Virus record (IMG/VR): IMGVR_UViG_3300002461_000046
Coordinates: 1-43,027 of that record
Strand: one strand, 5' to 3'
DNA: 43,027 nucleotides
Source: a virus
Shown: piece by piece, positions 4,255-43,027 of the stretch
How the letters are laid out: each line of letters opens with the position of its first letter
How positions within the stretch are numbered: position 1 is the stretch's first letter
Program-made: the position numbers and the translations under genes
Notes under the pieces: generated by a model
What the model was told of the DNA's origin: nothing
The model's database searches: none
What the model saw: only the letters and a program-made list of their open reading frames with translations

Positions 4255-6297
4255 ATGGCAGATATTACACAACTTCTTGCACAGGCACGTAATCCTCAGG
4301 AGGTTGCGTTGCTTCTGTCAGCAATGGGCCAGACTGGATCAATGGCTTCTCCTACAGCAGTGCAGACTGATCCTATGAATTTGAGTTCTGCGCGAGAGGC
4401 GGAGCTTCTTCTCTCCTCGCTGGGACAAACTAATCGTGGTCAGATGGCTCCTGTAGCTACTGATCCGCTTTTCCGCGCGTCTGGAGAATTCTTTCAGACT
4501 GATATTGGAAACATTAACTCAGAATCCGCTGCACGTGCTCTGCTGAATAGTATGGGCCAAACTGGCGCTATGGCTGAGAAAGTGCCTATGAGTCCTTCTA
4601 CCAGTGCAGGATTCGCAGGAACCTCTGGTGGTGAAGGTGGGGATTATAAGACTCCACTTAGTGCAGAAGATCGCATGTTCATTGATGCTTCTTATGCAGG
4701 TCTACAAGCTGATGTAGATCGTCTACTAGAGAACCCTGAAGCTCGTAAGAAGATTCTTGGCGACGATGGTATGCGGGACATTCCACGTACTGGCAAAGCT
4801 GATACTCGTGGCGGAGTTAATCGTGTCAATCAGTATACTTCTGAGCATGGAGTTACTGCTACGCGGGATCCAGAGACTGGCCAGGTCATGCTGACTAATA
4901 TCGGCGCTGACGGAAAGCCTACGCCTCAAAGCCAGAAGCAGGTCTATGGCTTCAATCCTATGAATGCTACCGGCTCAGCTGCCTTGGATAGCATCTACGA
5001 GCAGATTAAGAACGCTAAGAACTCTGATGAGGCTCGTGGCATTGCTGCGGCTGCTAGGACTTCGCTGGCTGAAGAAGGTGCGCGCATTGAATCTCAGGCT
5101 CTTACCTTTGCTGCTAACAAGGTAGGTATTCCTGCACTCCGTGAGCGCCTTAAAGCCTCGGAAACCATTGATATGTCTCAGCCCGGTTATATGCCAGGCA
5201 TTGGAGACTCTAAGAACACTGCTGCTATTCGTAATGAAGTAGCTCAAGCAGAGGCTCAGGCACGTCAGATCGCAGAGGACTGGAAGAAGTCTAACTTGTC
5301 AGCTGCTCGACTTGCTAGCACTGCTTCCAACATTGAAGCTGAGCTTAAGCGCATTGACTTGATAGAGCGTAAGAAGGAAGGTCTGGAAGCTACTACTCAG
5401 GCTCAGCAGGAACGTAAGCAGATCGAACGTGATGCTATTGCTCAGGAGCGCTACGATAGTTTCTCGGCTGAGCAGAAGATGATTATGTCTCGGCTGAATC
5501 CTGAGCTTGCAGCTAAGCCTGATAACCAAGGTGAGATGGTAGCTTACTTCCAACGCCAGATGACCAGTGATCCAGCATTCCGTGAGCTGATCCAGTCTGA
5601 TCCTGCTGACATCATTAAGCTGGCAGCTCGTGGCAATAAGCTGGCTCGTGCTCTCACTGTGCAAGAAGAGGCAGTAGCTACTGGCCGGCCACCTGATGTG
5701 ATTGACCAAGAAATCCGGTCTATGCAACAGCTTGCTAATGATCCAAATGCTATCAATGCATGGGCTATGGCTTCTACTGCTAGCATTATTGGTGACAAAG
5801 TAGCTGCTCGTAAGGCTGCCATCGGGCGCTACAATGCATTGGCTTCTGGTACTACTAAAGAAGAAAAAGCTCAGTACGAAAGCTTGCGTGGTGAGATTGC
5901 TCTTACTGCATTCAAGGCAAATAAGACTGCTAAGTTTGTGTCTGATGTTAGCACCTGGAATTCTACTGACCCTGAAGTGCAAGCAGCTACTGAGGTTGCT
6001 CTTACTACTTCAGGTAAGACGGATCTTGATTCTGTGCTGACAGCTTATGTAGGCGCTACTACTGGCCCTGAGGCACTGGCTAAGTATGCGGCCTTTAAAG
6101 AGTCTGTGCGTCAAGCAGCTCAGCAGCAGTCTAAGAGTGTGTTCGGTGGCGTGGACTCTGCTTCTATTCTCTCGCGCATTGACACTGCTGCTAAAGAAAA
6201 AGGCCAGCTTGCTGAGTGGTATAAACAACGCTGGGGCTGGACAGAAGATATCTCTCGCACAGTAGTGACTAACATTGCTGATCTGCTCGGTAACTAA
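4255..6297 (+). CDS. Internal virion protein candidate, 680 aa, with three N-terminal LLxSxGQT repeats and a long charged helical region
   Basis: ORF with AAGGAA RBS. Repeats are visible in the translation. Position upstream of the giant ORF. Confidence 0.5.
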   Translation: MADITQLLAQARNPQEVALLLSAMGQTGSMASPTAVQTDPMNLSSAREAELLLSSLGQTNRGQMAPVATDPLFRASGEFFQTDIGNINSESAARALLNSMGQTGAMAEKVPMSPSTSAGFAGTSGGEGGDYKTPLSAEDRMFIDASYAGLQADVDRLLENPEARKKILGDDGMRDIPRTGKADTRGGVNRVNQYTSEHGVTATRDPETGQVMLTNIGADGKPTPQSQKQVYGFNPMNATGSAALDSIYEQIKNAKNSDEARGIAAAARTSLAEEGARIESQALTFAANKVGIPALRERLKASETIDMSQPGYMPGIGDSKNTAAIRNEVAQAEAQARQIAEDWKKSNLSAARLASTASNIEAELKRIDLIERKKEGLEATTQAQQERKQIERDAIAQERYDSFSAEQKMIMSRLNPELAAKPDNQGEMVAYFQRQMTSDPAFRELIQSDPADIIKLAARGNKLARALTVQEEAVATGRPPDVIDQEIRSMQQLANDPNAINAWAMASTASIIGDKVAARKAAIGRYNALASGTTKEEKAQYESLRGEIALTAFKANKTAKFVSDVSTWNSTDPEVQAATEVALTTSGKTDLDSVLTAYVGATTGPEALAKYAAFKESVRQAAQQQSKSVFGGVDSASILSRIDTAAKEKGQLAEWYKQRWGWTEDISRTVVTNIADLLGN

Positions 6298-22636: not shown

Positions 22637-22882
22637 TTACTCCTCTTCTTTGTATTCATAGTAAACAACAGCGTGCATCCCCTCAGCAGCTAGGATCTTA
22701 GACCCAGGTTCTTTATGACCATTCAAGACCCTAGAAAGATGTGTATGATCGTAGCCACACATATCAGCATACTCCCGCATAGAGACACCCAAGATTTCAA
22801 TCTTCTCTCTTATGTGAGTACGTACCATGTCAGCATCCATGCTGTACGGAATACCCTTGCGGCCTGGCTTTTTAGAACTCAT
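22637..22882 (-). CDS. Helix-turn-helix DNA-binding protein (Cro/XRE-like regulator), 81 aa
   Basis: VSMREYADMCGYDHTHLSRVLNG fits an HTH (helix, turn, recognition helix). Small size. Third gene downstream of the internal promoter. Confidence 0.65.
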   Translation of the reverse strand: MSSKKPGRKGIPYSMDADMVRTHIREKIEILGVSMREYADMCGYDHTHLSRVLNGHKEPGSKILAAEGMHAVVYYEYKEEE

Positions 22883-28656: not shown

Positions 28657-28989
28657 TTAGCTCCTTACTTTCCGAATAACAACAAACTTAGAACCATCGT
28701 GCCAGAATTGAAATGAGCAGATAACTTCTGTTGGCTCTGAGATATTAACAAAGTCGTCAGCATCTCTCATATCCAGCCTAACTTCGAAGAATCCGTTGCC
28801 TTGCTGATACATTTGCAAGGTCAGCTTATTCGGTACTATGACAACACGCTTAATGTACGAAGCTGCAATATGTGGGAGCAACACCCCATTATCAACTGTT
28901 CTGAAAGAGACTCGTTTCTTAGCTGCTTCTGGAGATTGAGGAAGACTAGCAGCCATTGGTTTGATATTAGATTTAGAGAGGAGCATCAT
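28657..28989 (-). CDS. Hypothetical protein, 110 aa. Start moved to MMLLSKSN.
   Basis: ATG 28989 is preceded by GGAGAACG. It overlaps the upstream gene by 17 nt. Confidence 0.65.
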   Translation of the reverse strand: MMLLSKSNIKPMAASLPQSPEAAKKRVSFRTVDNGVLLPHIAASYIKRVVIVPNKLTLQMYQQGNGFFEVRLDMRDADDFVNISEPTEVICSFQFWHDGSKFVVIRKVRS

Positions 28990-30280
28990 CGTTCTCCACT
29001 TTAGAAGGTTGCACATTAGAAGAAGAAGTAGCCTGCTGAGCTTTGAGCAATGCGATACGCTCTTTGAAAGAAAGAACAGAGGCAGCGGGCTTAGACTCTA
29101 CCACTACTGGAGTAGGAGCATCGGCAAACTCATTATCTTCTGCTGCTTCTTTAGAGTCTACGTAGACTCCTACTGGAAGGTCAGCGAAAGAACCTGCTGG
29201 CTTTGCAAACTCTGATTCTTCACTGTCCAGCAGCTTAGAACGGAAGTAAGAAATCTTCTCAGCAAGAATGATAGCTTCTGCTACCTTGAGCTGCTTCAGC
29301 TTCTCGCAGATAAGATCAACCATAGCGCCATCAGCAAGCATCAGATTCTGATCTGCAACGATTGTAAGCAAAAAGCCTTTGAGCTTAGGGCTAATAACAG
29401 AAGCAGAGGCCATGGAGATAATGATATCTTTAGACTCTTTCTTCCACTGCCTAAAGTCTTTCTGCAAGGCAATAGCAGCACGCTTGGTGGCCGCAGTAGT
29501 AGTTGCCTTGTAAGCATACTGTTTGATTTCTTTAGCAGTACGCGTTACAGATTCCTCGTAAGACTCTTCATCAGGCTTATAGACTGCTTCGAGGGATACT
29601 TTGAGCCACTCAGACATTCTATGCTGGATGCCACCTTGCACGACTTCGTCGTTAAGAATGAGTGAGAGCTTAGGAATCCAGTTGCAGTTATTGGAGTTGA
29701 TGAATTCTTCTACAAACAGAATAGCATCAATGAGAATGTCTTTAGCTACTGTCCGCAGAATAGCATTCTTTTGTGCGCCACTATCAGAAGGTTGATAACG
29801 GAACAGAGAATAATCGTCGGCCAGTGTGATAAGAACAGCAGCAGTAGTTTGAATGTCCAGCTTGCGAAGATAATCTTTGCCTTCCTGAGCCAGTCCACGT
29901 GCATTGCGAAGATCAGCGAGAGGGGAGGAATAGGAGAATACTTTGCCGGGAATAGCAGGGAACGTAATAGCCACTACTGCGCCAGTAAAGTCACAGACTG
30001 CTGCTACATGTTCGTTGCTATTAGCAAGGTTGATGCGCTTAGAGAACTTCTGGCGCTTAGAATTGTACTGAATTAGAGAAGCTGAGCGCTTGCTAATACG
30101 ATCATTGATTTCTGCGAGGACCTTAGAAGCCACTGGTACAATTCCTTCATCTGCTATAATGCTAATCTCTTCTGACGTCATAGCAAGCTGAGGGACTTCG
30201 AATTGGTGGCCGGTGTTATCGCTTCGCGTGCTCTTATCGAAGAAAGCTGTGAAGGCATTATGTTTGAAAGTATCTGACAT
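28973..30280 (-). CDS. First gene of the leftward early arm. ORFan protein, 435 aa.
   Basis: Long ORF with GGAG RBS, directly downstream of the divergent control region. No motif recognised. Confidence 0.85.
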   Translation of the reverse strand: MSDTFKHNAFTAFFDKSTRSDNTGHQFEVPQLAMTSEEISIIADEGIVPVASKVLAEINDRISKRSASLIQYNSKRQKFSKRINLANSNEHVAAVCDFTGAVVAITFPAIPGKVFSYSSPLADLRNARGLAQEGKDYLRKLDIQTTAAVLITLADDYSLFRYQPSDSGAQKNAILRTVAKDILIDAILFVEEFINSNNCNWIPKLSLILNDEVVQGGIQHRMSEWLKVSLEAVYKPDEESYEESVTRTAKEIKQYAYKATTTAATKRAAIALQKDFRQWKKESKDIIISMASASVISPKLKGFLLTIVADQNLMLADGAMVDLICEKLKQLKVAEAIILAEKISYFRSKLLDSEESEFAKPAGSFADLPVGVYVDSKEAAEDNEFADAPTPVVVESKPAASVLSFKERIALLKAQQATSSSNVQPSKVENDDAPL

Positions 30281-30340
30281 TCTATAAGCTCCAAGGTTAG
30301 AATGATATGCTAGGCAATAGGGATTCCTATACGCTTGGAC

Positions 30341-30401
30341 ATATTAACACAGTTTATTGCCCGCAGGGCATTGTATTATTCAATCGAGGTCACGGGGTCA
30401 A
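30341..30401 (-). promoter_or_regulatory. Candidate leftward early promoter(s)
   Basis: Minus strand: TTGACC (30396-30401) -15 nt- AATAAT (30375-30380), and an extended -10 TGtTAATAT (30341-30349). Neither candidate is consensus quality. Confidence 0.3.
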
Positions 30402-30503
30402 TAGATTTTGGCAATCACCGAAAACGCCCGGTCATGGCGATCACACATATCTACATATCCAGCCCCCCGCAGTAGAATTCAGATGGACATTCTGACCAAC
30501 TAA
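30380..30503. repeat. Left arm of a long imperfect inverted repeat in the divergent control region
   Basis: Blocks tcaatcgaggtcac, ttttggcaat, GATCACACATATCTAC (30439-30454), C6 (30463-30468) and accaactaa (30495-30503) recur as reverse complements in the right arm. Confidence 0.75.
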
Positions 30504-30575
30504 CCTATTCAGTGGCTTCTGTAAGTAGTGTGTTAAGCTCTGAGCTTGTGAAGAGTAGAAGGATAAGCGAATGGT

Positions 30576-30663
30576 CTTTTATGTGTGTAGTTAAAATTTT
30601 TCTCTTTGTTTTCTACTTAAATAATTTTTATACCCTGAATATATTCCTCTTCTTAACTCCATA
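30576..30663. other. AT-rich core (about 74 percent A+T, T-rich on the plus strand) at the symmetry axis (about 30600)
   Basis: Counted by eye: about 23 G/C in 88 nt. No ORF. Flanked symmetrically by the repeat arms. Confidence 0.6.
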
Positions 30664-30696
30664 GAATGGCCAACAGCTTAGAAGCTAGATCTGTAT

Positions 30697-30803
30697 TTAG
30701 TTGGTGAAGATGGACCACTCAGGCAAACTGTGGGGGGTCTATTAGGTAGATATGTGTGATCCTCATTGCCAAAAAATCGAAAGAATCCAGTGATCGAGGT
30801 TGA
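30697..30803. repeat. Right arm of the long imperfect inverted repeat
   Basis: ttagttggt (30697-30705), G6 (30732-30737), GTAGATATGTGTGATC (30746-30761, perfect reverse complement of 30439-30454), attgccaaaa, gtgatcgaggttga (30790-30803). Confidence 0.75.
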
Positions 30804-30875
30804 GCTTTCCAGAATCTACCGTTCATCATCTTCTAGACCGTTCGTCGGCTTCTAAAGATATTTGCTAGAAACCCG

Positions 30876-30903
30876 TTGACAGTCGTTCTAGGTGTGGTAT
30901 ATT
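30876..30903 (+). promoter_or_regulatory. Sigma70-type promoter with extended -10 (TTGACA-16-TGgTATATT) for the gene at 31005
   Basis: TTGACA at 30876-30881, TG at 30895-30896, TATATT at 30898-30903. Confidence 0.7.
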
Positions 30904-31004
30904 TCAGTTCTGGCTTCGTTGAACAGCGCCCCAGAAACCCGCTCACAAGAGCAAAGCCTTGGCTAGTGGCTTACTAGCTTGTTTATAGAGAGCTTAGAAA
31001 CATC

Positions 31005-31586
31005 ATGGAAAACATCATTATTGCAGTGTCGAAAAAAGTCGGTGGCAAATACGAGAAGCAAGGCGAAGTGCCTATTGTGGTTCCTGTCCTGACGGATATT
31101 GCCGCTGTCGTTGCAGGTGCTAAAGTGACCGGTGTAGAAGACGGCCTGCCCACCTATGAGAGCGATATTGCCAATTGGGTTCAGTCGGCTATGCTGGCCT
31201 ACGTGAAAGCCAATGCTCGTAACAAGCTGAAACCCGGTACCGCTGAAGTTAAGGATGGTTTGAAGATTCCTACTAATTGGGAGGAATTGTGCGCTGAGGG
31301 TGAGCGTGGCGGTAATGGCGCTGCATTGCAGTTGGCTCGTGAAGTTAAAGAAGCTTTCGCAGCATGGGCTAATACCCTTGGCAAGAGCGCAGCGACCGTT
31401 AAGGTTATGGTTTCTTACTTCAGCAACAAGACGGCATTGGAGCTTGCAACCCCGGACCATAAGGGTAAACTGAAAGCTTATGTTGAGCAGTTCGCTACTA
31501 GCTTGGATGAAGAGACGCTAGAGCGTTACCAGCGCCCTATTGAGAGCATCTTGGAAGTGTGCGATTCTGCTACCGCTGACTTCTAA
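31005..31586 (+). CDS. Monocistronic early ORFan, 193 aa, mildly acidic, with codon usage unlike the rest of the genome
   Basis: ORF bracketed by a near-consensus promoter and a terminator. Codons are CTG/TTG, ACC/ACG, AGC/TCG, GGC-rich, whereas neighbours prefer CTT, ACT, TCT, GCT. Confidence 0.85.
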   Translation: MENIIIAVSKKVGGKYEKQGEVPIVVPVLTDIAAVVAGAKVTGVEDGLPTYESDIANWVQSAMLAYVKANARNKLKPGTAEVKDGLKIPTNWEELCAEGERGGNGAALQLAREVKEAFAAWANTLGKSAATVKVMVSYFSNKTALELATPDHKGKLKAYVEQFATSLDEETLERYQRPIESILEVCDSATADF

Positions 31587-31614
31587 GCCACTGCTTAGAT
31601 TCTCCTAAAGAATG

Positions 31615-31641
31615 CCCGGCCTAAACAGTCGGGTATTTTTT
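31615..31641 (+). terminator. Rho-independent terminator
   Basis: cccggc-ctaaaca-gtcggg (6-bp stem with one G-U pair) followed by taTTTTTT. Confidence 0.7.
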
Positions 31642-31667
31642 CGTCTATATTTTCCGACAGACGGTAG

Positions 31668-31695
31668 TTGACATTCTAAACCATGAGCGTATAAT
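31668..31695 (+). promoter_or_regulatory. Consensus sigma70-type promoter (TTGACA-16-TATAAT)
   Basis: TTGACA at 31668-31673 and TATAAT at 31690-31695, about 27 nt after the preceding terminator. Confidence 0.75.
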
Positions 31696-31752
31696 ATACA
31701 TCAGAGCACAGAATAAGCTGGCTCTAGTTTCCAACAGACAAAGGTGTATATT

Positions 31753-31902
31753 ATGAAATCCGCAATCAAGCTGGCTCAATTGGTCCTCTCTGATGTAGAG
31801 GCTTTTGGATTCTATGATGCTGCAATCATTGCTAAGAAGAGGCGTAAACTGAGCTTCCAACAAACCTACATGATGATGTTCGGCAAATACCCAACCCGCT
31901 AA
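31753..31902 (+). CDS. Small hypothetical basic protein, 49 aa (MKSAIKLAQLVLSDVEAF...)
   Basis: Translated by hand. AAGGTG lies 7 nt upstream of ATG 31753. Below the ORF-track cutoff. C-ending codon bias. Confidence 0.5.
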   Translation: MKSAIKLAQLVLSDVEAFGFYDAAIIAKKRRKLSFQQTYMMMFGKYPTR

Positions 31903-31917
31903 TTGGGAGAATCTAAT

Positions 31918-32142
31918 ATGAAACATGCACATCAATTATATTCTGAATTGCTCGAATTGCCAGTGGCTGAGATATGGTCTAATGGTCGCGGTAAATATTG
32001 GCTGGTAATCCAATCAATTAGAACTGGCGAATGGCTGCATTACAATATGATTGCAAAAGAAACGGCCCTTCGATTGAAAGCTAATAGACTCCGGTATAAT
32101 GTTGATCGAGGAATGACAGTAGATAATCCGCACGATGATTAG
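31918..32142 (+). CDS. Hypothetical protein, 74 aa. Start moved to MKHAHQLY.
   Basis: ATG 31918 is preceded by GGGAGA. The track start at 31903 is a TTG. Uses rare-type codons (AGA, CGA, CGG, ATA). Confidence 0.65.
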   Translation: MKHAHQLYSELLELPVAEIWSNGRGKYWLVIQSIRTGEWLHYNMIAKETALRLKANRLRYNVDRGMTVDNPHDD

Positions 32143-32157
32143 ATGCTCGAAAGAATT

Positions 32158-32186
32158 AGCCTACCCCGCCCGGTAGGCTTTTTTTT
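32158..32186 (+). terminator. Strong rho-independent terminator
   Basis: aGCCTACC-ccgccc-GGTAGGCt followed by a T8 run (32179-32186). Confidence 0.8.
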
Positions 32187-32232
32187 GGTCCTGCCGGCGG
32201 CGCGCGTATCAAAAGGAGCTCTCGCATTTTTC

Positions 32233-32285
32233 TAAACTTTTCTGCAAACATACATTATAATCTCTTCCTTAACGATCACAATATC
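32233..32285 (+). promoter_or_regulatory. Candidate late-operon promoter (consensus TATAAT, poor -35) plus a GATCACAATATC motif copy in the leader
   Basis: TATAAT at 32256-32261. The 17-nt-upstream hexamer is TAAACT. GATCACAATATC at 32274-32285 resembles the 16-mer of the control-region repeat. Confidence 0.35.
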
Positions 32286-32400
32286 AACCAGTTCTCCCCT
32301 TCTTGAGTAGCGACTTAGCAAGAACCTAAAGGGCCAAGGTCTGTGATAGAATGTCCCAAAGCACCTCCTGTGCCTCTTAAGTTTCTCTAAGGAGAAGATC

Positions 32401-33012
32401 ATGAAAGAACGAATCAAAGCTTATCTGGCTGATGGACTCAAAGCCGCAGATGTAGCTACTATTCTTGGCTGCTCCCCAGGCTATATCTCCCAGCTGATGA
32501 AAAATGAGAACTTCAAAGCTGAGGTGGAGCAAGCTCTTATCACCAATCAGAAGCCAGCTGATGAGGTCTTGGAGTCTCGCTACCAGTCTCTTGAGCATAA
32601 TATCGTCAAGCGGATGAACGAGGAGCTAGCTGGAGCTGAGATTGGTGACCTCACAAAAGCCCTTGACTCGGTTACTCGGGCTAATGATGCACGTTATAAG
32701 CGCAAGCATCCAGCAGCACAGCAGCCAGGCACTAACCTTACGCAAATTGCTCATATCTATCTGCCACAGCATGTCCTTCCTGCACCTGTAATGACTCTCA
32801 ATGAGCGTTCTGAGGTAGTAGCTATTGATAATAAACCTCTGGCTCCTATGTCTGCTGGTGGAGTTAAGGATCTGTTTGCCAGAATGACTGTCCAGAAGCT
32901 TACCGAGAACAATGTTAACGAATTCGAGGCACCTTCTAATGTCACAAGAACCAATTCTGTGGAAACCGCAGCCAATGAAAGTACCAGCCAAGTCTCCGCT
33001 TACGGAAAGTAA
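32401..33012 (+). CDS. terS: Terminase small subunit candidate (N-terminal HTH), 203 aa
   Basis: ADVATILGCSPGYISQLM HTH. Immediately upstream of terL. AAGGAG RBS. Confidence 0.6.
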   Translation: MKERIKAYLADGLKAADVATILGCSPGYISQLMKNENFKAEVEQALITNQKPADEVLESRYQSLEHNIVKRMNEELAGAEIGDLTKALDSVTRANDARYKRKHPAAQQPGTNLTQIAHIYLPQHVLPAPVMTLNERSEVVAIDNKPLAPMSAGGVKDLFARMTVQKLTENNVNEFEAPSNVTRTNSVETAANESTSQVSAYGK

Positions 33013-42794: not shown

Positions 42795-43027
42795 TGGCTA
42801 CATCTGCCGCAGACCAGCTATATCCTCTAAGCACAGACAATGGCGTAGCTATTCCACTTGATATTGTTAGACCTCTGGGATCTATCAAGTGGACGGTAGC
42901 TTCTGGGGGTGATCTAGCTATTACTATCCCAGGCACTTTCGCACTTGTCAGTGTGTTTTCTAATGTCAACTGCCTGTTAGATTTCTCAAACACAGTGAGT
43001 TATCCAGCAGCAGATGCTACTAAGTAC
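42794..43027 (+). CDS. 5' part of the junction-spanning ORF (continues at nt 95 in the circular molecule)
   Basis: ATG 42794 in a TAATG overlap with the holin stop. The frame stays open to the window end, and the last 31 codons equal those at nt 2-94. Confidence 0.75.
   Translation, partial: MATSAADQLYPLSTDNGVAIPLDIVRPLGSIKWTVASGGDLAITIPGTFALVSVFSNVNCLLDFSNTVSYPAADATKY
42934..43027. repeat. Terminal direct repeat, copy 2 (identical to 1-94)
   Basis: Read directly. Confidence 0.95.

Follow-up and report, generated by a model that had tools for sequence, protein, structure and literature searches.

To our knowledge, replication origins are known for few phages beyond a small number of models, and we know of no account of the recruitment to DNA of DUF3987 (MCM-like) helicases, which are widespread in phages. 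Here we analyze a non-coding region at positions 30281-31004 of IMG/VR virus record IMGVR_UViG_3300002461_000046, a stretch of 43,027 nucleotides that was examined in full and is called the window below. The central ~420 bp of this gap (30380-30803) form a long imperfect palindrome around an AT-rich core. Comparison with related phages leads us to propose, tentatively, that this module may be a bidirectional replication origin lying between two promoters.

By analogy, the archaeal-type origin built on origin recognition boxes (ORBs) appears to be the closest known layout. In cells, MCM loading takes place at AT-rich regions between inverted ORB repeats, which contain G-strings (PMC4010727). 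The phage element resembles such origins in its AT-rich centre of low stability, in its inverted flanking repeats with a G-rich run on their centre-facing side, and in repeat sequences that vary by replicon; an MCM-like winged-helix helicase is encoded, and replication genes are adjacent. However, the host is bacterial, and the phage has no recognisable Orc1/Cdc6 gene beside the element. The phage repeats are also ~9 bp long, tandem and lineage-specific, they have no sequence similarity to ORBs, and the polarity of the G/C runs is not fixed. In addition, the directly oriented TCTGT words of the phage have no counterpart in ORB origins, and the phage element is known from its sequence.

Iteron-type origins such as lambda ori, P1 oriR and RK2 oriV place tandem initiator sites beside an AT-rich region, which in RK2 is accompanied by a G+C-rich stretch. 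The phage element shares with them the tandem short repeats of roughly helical period, the adjacent AT-rich region that could melt, the G/C-rich stretches and the replicon-specific repeats. However, classical iterons are 17-22 bp long, one-sided and directly oriented, and DnaA boxes are usual, while the phage has two arrays facing each other across ~270-400 bp and no DnaA boxes. Eukaryotic viral origins (SV40 core origin, herpes simplex virus (HSV) oriS, papillomavirus ori) have palindromic sites for an initiator-helicase around or beside an AT-rich tract. The two-fold symmetry at an AT-rich element is similar, and it would be explained if a hexameric AAA+ helicase were loaded in both directions. 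These origins measure only 45-100 bp and are recognised site-specifically by the helicase itself, whereas the phage module is ~420 bp long and its conserved helicase is an unlikely reader of lineage-specific repeats. Finally, the T7 primary origin consists of promoters followed by an AT-rich region. Both phages are podophages with a family A DNA polymerase and have an AT-rich element near strong promoters, but the phage studied here has no RNA polymerase of its own and its promoters face away from the core, and T7 lacks mirrored repeat arrays.

Symmetry and conservation of the module

The region was first noticed from the letters of the window alone. This sequence-only reading held that the gap contains no credible open reading frame (ORF) and is by far the largest in the genome, and both statements stand. 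Only mechanical ORFs of 36-62 amino acids (aa) occur, none of which keeps its position or frame in relatives, and the next stretches without a long ORF measure ~260-320 bp as far as the ORF map can tell (31587-31902 and 32143-32400). The proposed palindrome, with its axis near 30600, was confirmed by aligning the left half against the reverse complement of the right half. This split-at-axis alignment scored 59 (z = 13.8), while none of 100 dinucleotide shuffles scored above 28 and the control in direct orientation reached 20. The two arms (30434-30555 and 30647-30766) are ~68% identical, contain indels and are separated by a spacer of ~90 bp. With strict gap and mismatch penalties, the inverted repeat is only moderately significant (z ~3-4) and most relatives are missed.

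The symmetry includes an exact 16-mer pair, GATCACACATATCTAC (30439-30454) and GTAGATATGTGTGATC (30746-30761), of which no further copy with up to three mismatches exists in the whole window. A C6 run and a G6 run lie just inside the two copies, as had been described. The outer blocks pair as well, through a perfect 10-mer, TTTTGGCAAT (30406-30415) with ATTGCCAAAA (30765-30774), and through a second pair, TCAATCGAGGTCAC with GTGATCGAGGTTGA, read by eye from the sequence. Altogether the symmetry spans ~30380-30803 and reaches nearer to the centre than the sequence-only reading had it. GATC is not enriched in the gap, which rules out a cluster of Dam sites. The word GATCTGTATTTAG at 30688-30700 agrees at 10 of 13 positions with GATCTCTTATTAG, which we take to be the middle 13-mer of Escherichia coli oriC; the match is short and is given as a lead only.

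The centre of the palindrome (30576-30663) is 76% A+T, close to the first estimate of ~74%, and T makes up 45 of the 88 bases (51%) on the + strand. The core is the most AT-rich and the most T-rich stretch of the 42.9-kb genome. It also contains the least stable 90-bp duplex genome-wide (30577-30666), at -99.1 kcal/mol against a mean of -121.9 (sd 4.9) and a next-lowest value of -105.0, and it remains the stability minimum in windows of 40, 60 and 120 bp. The homologous core of Polaromonas phage Tiera is the stability minimum of its genome at 120 bp and among the lowest three at 60 and 90 bp. In the window, the core occurs once. Single occurrence of both the core and the 16-mer is expected of one cis-acting site and not of a dispersed promoter. 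A motif for a phage polymerase or for late promoters was considered and rejected, as no enrichment elsewhere in the genome was seen for the 16-mer, the core, CTTAGAA or ATCTGTA.

A blastn search with 29000-33000 gave no nucleotide match to any deposited phage. Relatives were therefore sought through proteins and the DNA pattern of the core, by protein-guided scans, a core-pattern DNA scan and look-ups of 12 homologues of the 193-aa protein encoded to the right of the gap. The resulting comparison set comprises 17 non-redundant lineages (given L-numbers where they must be told apart), which are themselves related to one another. The closest isolates by protein are Tiera (portal 48% identical), EBPR podovirus 3 and the Pseudomonas PaMx41/119X/PaP2 group (37%), the latter belonging to genus Jamesmcgillvirus of the family Fredfastierviridae. 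All 17 lineages keep a gap of 720-890 bp at the same position.

From the axis outward, the lineages share a layout of T-rich core, TCTGT words, G/C runs and short mirrored repeats that are specific to the lineage. In the lineage alignments, the core GTCTTTTATGTGTGTAgTTaAAaTTTTT ... CTTAAATAATTTTTATA (30574-30635) is nearly invariant, and Tiera and the most distant contigs still retain TTTATGTG ... AAATTTTT. The T-rich strand of the core is the + strand in every lineage. TCTGT(A) is found at about -70 to -95 and +70 to +115 from the axis, both times on the + strand, i.e., in direct and not inverted orientation. It is present on both sides in 11 of the 17 lineages (shuffle mean 0.07, maximum 1), and the reverse orientation never occurs on both sides. 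Further out, at about -100 to -165 and +110 to +165, a G/C run of at least 5 is likewise present on both sides in 11/17 lineages (shuffle mean 0.17, maximum 2). The polarity of these runs is C left and G right in the window and six other lineages, and G left and C right in L082 and L095, while in Tiera and L073 the letter is the same left and right; only one arm window contains a run in L081 and L058. Such variable polarity fits a feature of duplex DNA better than a feature of RNA. As a side observation, the right arm of Tiera (L001, ~5929-6075) contains a perfect tandem duplication of ~72 bp with a G6 run in each unit.

Beyond the runs, the outer repeats differ by lineage and have opposite orientations on the two sides, with a period of 9-10 bp where they are regular. 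L093 has TxxCTGGGT at -164, -155, -146 and -137 (+) and at +173, +191 and +199 (-), L032 has GGnTATTAT at -176, -167 and -158 (+) and at +173 and +182 (-), and L082 has CCAGATCA at -152, -134 and -124 (+) and at +192 and +209 (-). By their arrangement, these regular repeats would behave like iterons. The order of repeats, G/C run and centre is seen in the window, L093, L082 and PaMx41, and in L032 on the left side only, where the right arm has no run of at least 5. Conservation of the arms had been suggested as a check on the palindrome, and an inverted repeat with z of at least 7 and the same axis was found in 9 of the 17 lineages, although the arm sequences diverge widely; the arms of L032 and L058 share almost nothing with those of the window.

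PaMx41 and PaP2 have the same order of parts, with CAAGGT four times, G/C runs, an AT-rich centre, G/C runs and ACCTTG three times. In these two phages, the element is located upstream of the replication operon and downstream of the terminator of a same-strand gene, so that the flanking genes are not divergent. The occurrence of this layout between non-divergent genes implies that the module is not a mere by-product of divergent promoters.

A replication origin as the leading reading

The comparison leads us to conclude that the module probably acts as duplex DNA bound by a protein. The sequence-only reading had proposed an unwinding element flanked by symmetric sites; that layout was borne out by the relatives, and it is from the layout that we infer a possible origin function. 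In the proposed mechanism, a sequence-specific protein encoded by the phage would bind the lineage-specific mirrored repeats 125-210 bp on either side of the axis, and the G/C runs, ~135 bp from it on each side, would bound the region that can be opened. Melting would occur in the near-invariant T-rich core (30574-30666), where the duplex is least stable genome-wide, and the MCM-like DUF3987 helicase would be loaded in both directions. The two forks would then be co-directional with the two transcription arms.

Replicon-specific repeat arrays, G/C-rich stretches, neighbouring replication genes and a skew minimum are usual marks of an origin. The module adjoins the arm of replication genes and coincides with the minimum of the cumulative GC skew, which lies at ~29-30 kb with a maximum at ~11-12 kb; gene orientation switches at both points. 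These marks, together with the stability minimum, the layout in PaMx41 and PaP2 and the MCM-like helicase, make an origin the leading reading.

The helicase is the DUF3987 protein, named DNA primase in PHROGs and GenBank, in which no primase domain was seen. Its AlphaFold2 model (pLDDT 87.5) has an AAA+ fold with a C-terminal winged helix, and the top 50 PDB matches of the model in Foldseek are all MCM subunits. According to this model, the 'primase' thus has an MCM-like AAA+ fold. This agrees with a published assignment of DUF3987 proteins to the SF6/MCM-like phage replicative helicases (PMC4889955). No Orc1/Cdc6 initiator gene was recognised beside the element, and the DUF3987 protein is the only AAA+ winged-helix protein found.

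The gene adjoining the gap on the left (28973-30280, - strand) encodes a 435-aa protein that is confined to this phage group and has no match in Pfam, PHROG, NCBIfam, PDB sequences or PDB folds, its only match being an unnamed viral protein. It has a conserved central domain (invariant C96, R128, Y137, D166 and AQKNA at 169-173) followed by long helices.

A narrower version of the origin reading, which we regard as rather improbable, is a phage origin on an archaeal/eukaryotic plan. Here, lineage-specific inverted repeats and G/C strings would direct head-to-head loading of an MCM-like helicase (DUF3987, SF6), without DnaA and in a bacterial host. Such a plan would be conserved at family level, in Fredfastierviridae and their freshwater relatives, with an initiator that has gone unrecognised. 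The fold-orphan 435-aa protein is a candidate for this initiator.

Several observations weigh against an origin. The MCM-like gene is 15 kb from the element, and its sequence is too conserved to explain lineage-specific repeats, while the 435-aa protein, the natural initiator candidate beside the element, has no recognisable initiator fold. The gap contains no DnaA box (TTWTNCACA, up to one mismatch), although there are 65 such matches genome-wide, and no IHF consensus. As read from the alignments, the arms of L003 and L004 carry 8/9 matches to the DnaA box, while distant relatives do not. GC skew cannot separate replication from transcription, since gene orientation is fully confounded with position. 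No significant inverted repeat was obtained by the split-at-axis test in L074/L008, L081, L084/L086 and L090, and the PaMx41 element is not the least stable window of the PaMx41 genome. The window's own repeats are irregular, the left side having GGCAATCAC and GGCGATCAC and the right side two GTGATC. The strict + strand orientation of the TCTGT and CTTAGAA words is unexplained by a symmetric origin model. Moreover, the windows used for the positional tests were picked after the data had been seen, in lineages that are related, and the literature contains no experimental work on this element for any member of the group. Finally, the layout would also fit a packaging site or an operator array.

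Packaging, transcriptional control and structure as alternatives

The two arrays could instead form a headful packaging (pac) site, a reading that we consider unlikely but take seriously. In this case, the small terminase would bind the mirrored arrays and bend or loop the DNA, and the first headful cut, by the large terminase, would fall in or near the AT-rich core. P1 pac has four plus three TGATCA/G hexamers around a central cleavage region, 162 bp in all, inside pacA. The pacL-pacC-pacR site of SPP1 is also two-sided, and pac abuts the small-terminase gene. The phage element similarly has two clusters of short repeats around a centre, at the head of the structural and terminase arm, and GATC, which the P1 hexamers likewise contain, lies within repeat words at 3 of the 4 GATC sites of the gap. 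The likeness rests on sequence layout, and the small-terminase gene is 1.4 kb away (~2.2 kb in PaMx41, with four genes between). Location in or directly beside the small-terminase gene is a common pattern and no absolute rule. Between the element and the terminase gene of PaMx41 lie an operon of four genes and a second gap with repeats. Furthermore, a pac site does not need the least stable duplex of the genome.

The ends of contigs and records bear most directly on packaging. Contigs of five relatives (L080, L083, L088, L091 and L097) end in the gap, 249-455 bp upstream of the 193-aa gene, where roughly one such end would be expected; four of the five are 19-43 kb long. However, these ends have no common position. 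They lie in places where coverage and assembly frequently fail, at G/C homopolymer runs (L083 begins with 24 C) or in the AT-rich core. They could be artefacts of assembly or coverage, or they could hint at DNA ends. Fixed ends in the gap are unlikely, since the break lies elsewhere in most full-length contigs of relatives and also in the window, whose 94-nt overlap is inside a gene; with the ends in the gap scattered as well, fixed genome termini there were rejected.

The PaMx41 and PaP2 records both start in the AT-rich centre of their own elements, which favors packaging but may be mere convention. We compared these record ends (L101/L102, PaMx41 43472-43490 plus 1-24 and the PaP2 equivalent), and found the two phages ~94% identical across the junction, yet completely different over ~20 bases on each side of the record ends. 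The difference is counted here in favor of a pac site, and it may reflect real DNA ends or end-of-assembly errors. Terminally redundant ends have been reported for phage Shea, which belongs to the genus of PaMx41 (PMC13348215). A further observation in PaMx41 (L098) is that 1887-2234, directly upstream of its small-terminase gene, holds four CTAAYCYTGG-type units of 10-bp period, G5/G6/G5 runs and an AT-rich stretch. PaMx41 may have two sites of this kind, or this second gap may be its actual pac site.

The sequence-only reading also described the gap as a divergent control region from which both transcription arms start. As a description this holds, with promoters at the outer edges, and more firmly for the rightward arm than for the leftward one. 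The rightward promoter scores 16 bits in a position-weight-matrix scan, and 15 of the 17 lineages (not L084 and L087) have an equivalent of 12.6-16.1 bits at the corresponding position; it is the sole strong sigma-70-type promoter of the gap conserved across lineages. The leftward candidate (9.7 bits, with an alternative reading of 17 nt followed by TAATAC at 30373-30378) is weak. It sits in a block, ATTGTATTATT.AATC.AGGTC..GTC.ATAGATTTT (30370-30409), that is invariant in close relatives, and by the matrix scan many lineages lack it or have it displaced. The two promoters face outward ~470 bp apart with the palindrome between them, so that the palindrome need not be transcribed.

A transcriptional switch, in which a phage regulator would bind both arrays, loop the bendable AT-rich spacer and co-regulate both promoters, would account for the symmetry as two operator arrays. 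We find such a role, as the main function of the module, about as doubtful as packaging. The module is flanked by promoters on both sides, repeat words on the left share bases with the -35 hexamer of the leftward candidate, and the weakness of the leftward promoter makes dependence on an activator probable. Another conserved site, tandem or dyad, immediately precedes the rightward promoter, and an HTH_3 protein is encoded at 22637-22882. In close relatives, this site is a tandem repeat; other lineages have a CTATG-N14-CATAG dyad at its position, as read from the alignment. The repeat at 30818-30854 is thus probably a regulator site, with the 81-aa HTH_3 protein as a candidate binder. However, divergent promoters with operators usually need far less than the ~470 bp found here, and in PaMx41 the same layout lies between two same-strand genes, downstream of a terminator. 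Tandem repeats with a 9-10-bp period typically mark iteron, centromere or terminase sites, not dyad operators. Furthermore, the repeats and the core are found nowhere else in the genome. An operator or looping role may nevertheless coexist with other functions.

A long structured or antisense RNA, also suggested by the sequence-only reading, would be a + strand transcript with its arms paired as a long helix around a U-rich loop. We now consider this very unlikely. RNAalifold on six relatives does pair the arms, with 25 of 84 predicted pairs (some outside the arms) changed on both sides, and, folded as DNA, the strand is more stable than its shuffles (z = -4.05). However, the covariation term is only -0.41 kcal/mol, covariation of the arms is equally expected from two co-evolving binding sites, and both the pairing and the good folding follow from any inverted repeat with co-evolving arms. 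Mismatches first inspected by eye had looked G-U compatible on the + strand, an impression rejected after the count in all lineages: the 458 arm mismatches comprise 296 transversions and 162 transitions, near the random ratio of 2:1, so wobble pairs are not favored. Within the transitions there is a modest + strand excess (104 vs 58) that may be explained by a G+T-rich + strand, of which only the T-richness of the core was measured. The TCTGT and CTTAGAA words and the T-rich core are strictly on the + strand, weak -10-like hexamers recur in the core, and a promoter-like CTGACA-18-TAGAAT is present on the + strand at 30274-30303. More distant relatives, however, do not retain the CTGACA hexamer, which coincides in part with the start codon of the leftward gene, and both well-placed promoters face away from the palindrome. 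The flipping polarity of the G/C runs also speaks against an RNA. There was no Rfam match at the gathering score (whole window) or at E <= 1 (30200-31100), and a search for tRNA and tmRNA found none.

Least credible, to the point that we scarcely entertain it, is a palindrome that would act by DNA structure alone as a cruciform: the single strand does form one long hairpin of -49.3 kcal/mol compared to -31.5 +/- 4.4 for shuffles, but extrusion from a duplex requires near-perfect arms and a short spacer, while the arms here are diverged, contain indels and flank ~90 bp, and several lineages lack a significant inverted repeat.

Genome context and meaning for the phage family

Positions 1-94 of the window are identical to 42934-43027, which indicates a complete circular assembly of ~42,933 bp, with the assembly junction falling within a gene of the structural arm. 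The G+C content of this assembly is 46%. The genes are laid out in two arms, one on each strand (Table 1). Products of the minus-strand arm include an SF1 Dda/RecD2-like helicase, an AAA_33 protein, the HTH_3 protein, a PD-(D/E)XK nuclease, an AAA_24 ATPase, a DUF669 protein, the family A DNA polymerase, the DUF3987 'primase' and a DHH protein.

Table 1. Features of the gap and of the genes discussed, with positions in the window.
Feature	Position	Strand	Remarks
Whole non-coding region	30281-31004	.	Between the divergent 435-aa (28973-30280, -) and 193-aa (31005-31586, +) genes
Candidate weak leftward promoter	30375-30401	-	TTGACC (30396-30401), 15 nt, AATAAT (30375-30380); 9.7 bits; assignment inferred
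Left outer arm	30388-30454	+	GGTCAC (30388-30393), GGCAATCAC (30410-30418), GGCGATCAC (30436-30444) overlapping 16-mer GATCACACATATCTAC
C6 run	30463-30468	.	~136 bp left of axis
Left inner arm of inverted repeat	30469-30573	.	TCTGT at 30518-30522, + strand
AT-rich core, proposed DNA unwinding element	30574-30666	+ (T-rich strand)	Near-invariant part GTCTTTTATGTGTGTAGTTAAAATTTTT...CTTAAATAATTTTTATA (30574-30635)
Right inner arm	30667-30731	.	TCTGT at 30690-30694, + strand, oriented as the left copy
G6 run	30732-30737	.	~133 bp right of axis
Right outer arm, mirrors the left one	30746-30803	-	16-mer GTAGATATGTGTGATC, GTGATC (30756-30761, 30790-30795), ATTGCCAAAA (30765-30774)
Tandem 19-bp repeat ACCGTTC.TC..CTTCTA, 1.9 copies	30818-30854	+	22-58 bp upstream of rightward -35; conserved in close relatives; probable regulator site
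Rightward sigma-70-type promoter	30876-30903	+	TTGACA, 16 nt, TATATT; TG one base upstream of -10; 11/12 consensus matches
Leader of 193-aa gene	30904-31004	+	Small hairpin GCTAG...CTAGC (30961-30979), ribosome-binding site
Plus-strand arm	31005 through assembly junction to 11610	+	Small and large terminase, portal, SU10-type capsid protein, large virion proteins
Small-terminase gene	32401-33012	+	1.4 kb from gap
Minus-strand arm	30280 down to 11666	-	Replication and recombination genes
HTH_3 protein, 81 aa	22637-22882	-	Family match
DUF3987 protein, 419 aa	13755-15014	-	Pfam and PHROG matches; called 'primase' elsewhere; proposed helicase loaded at the element

At the left edge of the gap, an inverted repeat CATTCTA / TAGAATG (30278-30304) surrounds the ribosome-binding site, includes the start codon of the 435-aa gene and is conserved in close relatives. 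As an RNA hairpin (-4.1 kcal/mol) it is no more stable than shuffles, and the same applies to the hairpin at the other gene start (30961-30979). The leader of the 193-aa gene has no consensus structure across 12 lineages. At the right edge, comparison with L003 and L004 shows a jump in identity, from only 72% for the 435-aa protein and ~80% for the gap to 99% for the 193-aa protein. Such a jump suggests a recombination breakpoint where the gap meets the 193-aa gene, near the start codon of that gene.

About 70% of the genes in this phage family have no assigned function. The element is a precise and conserved candidate, with a defined core, flanking repeats that vary by lineage and a short list of candidate binders. 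Because the repeats vary between lineages, binding specificity could be readable by swapping arms between relatives. Some members of the genus of PaMx41, PaP2 and Shea have been reported to persist as episomes, and if the origin is confirmed, the element would be the obvious place for control of this state. Should the element prove to be a pac site, it would belong to a class of large two-sided packaging signals for which few phage examples have been described. Interest in the element would grow if the link to the MCM-like helicase were borne out, and either outcome, origin or pac site, would improve the annotation of this phage family.

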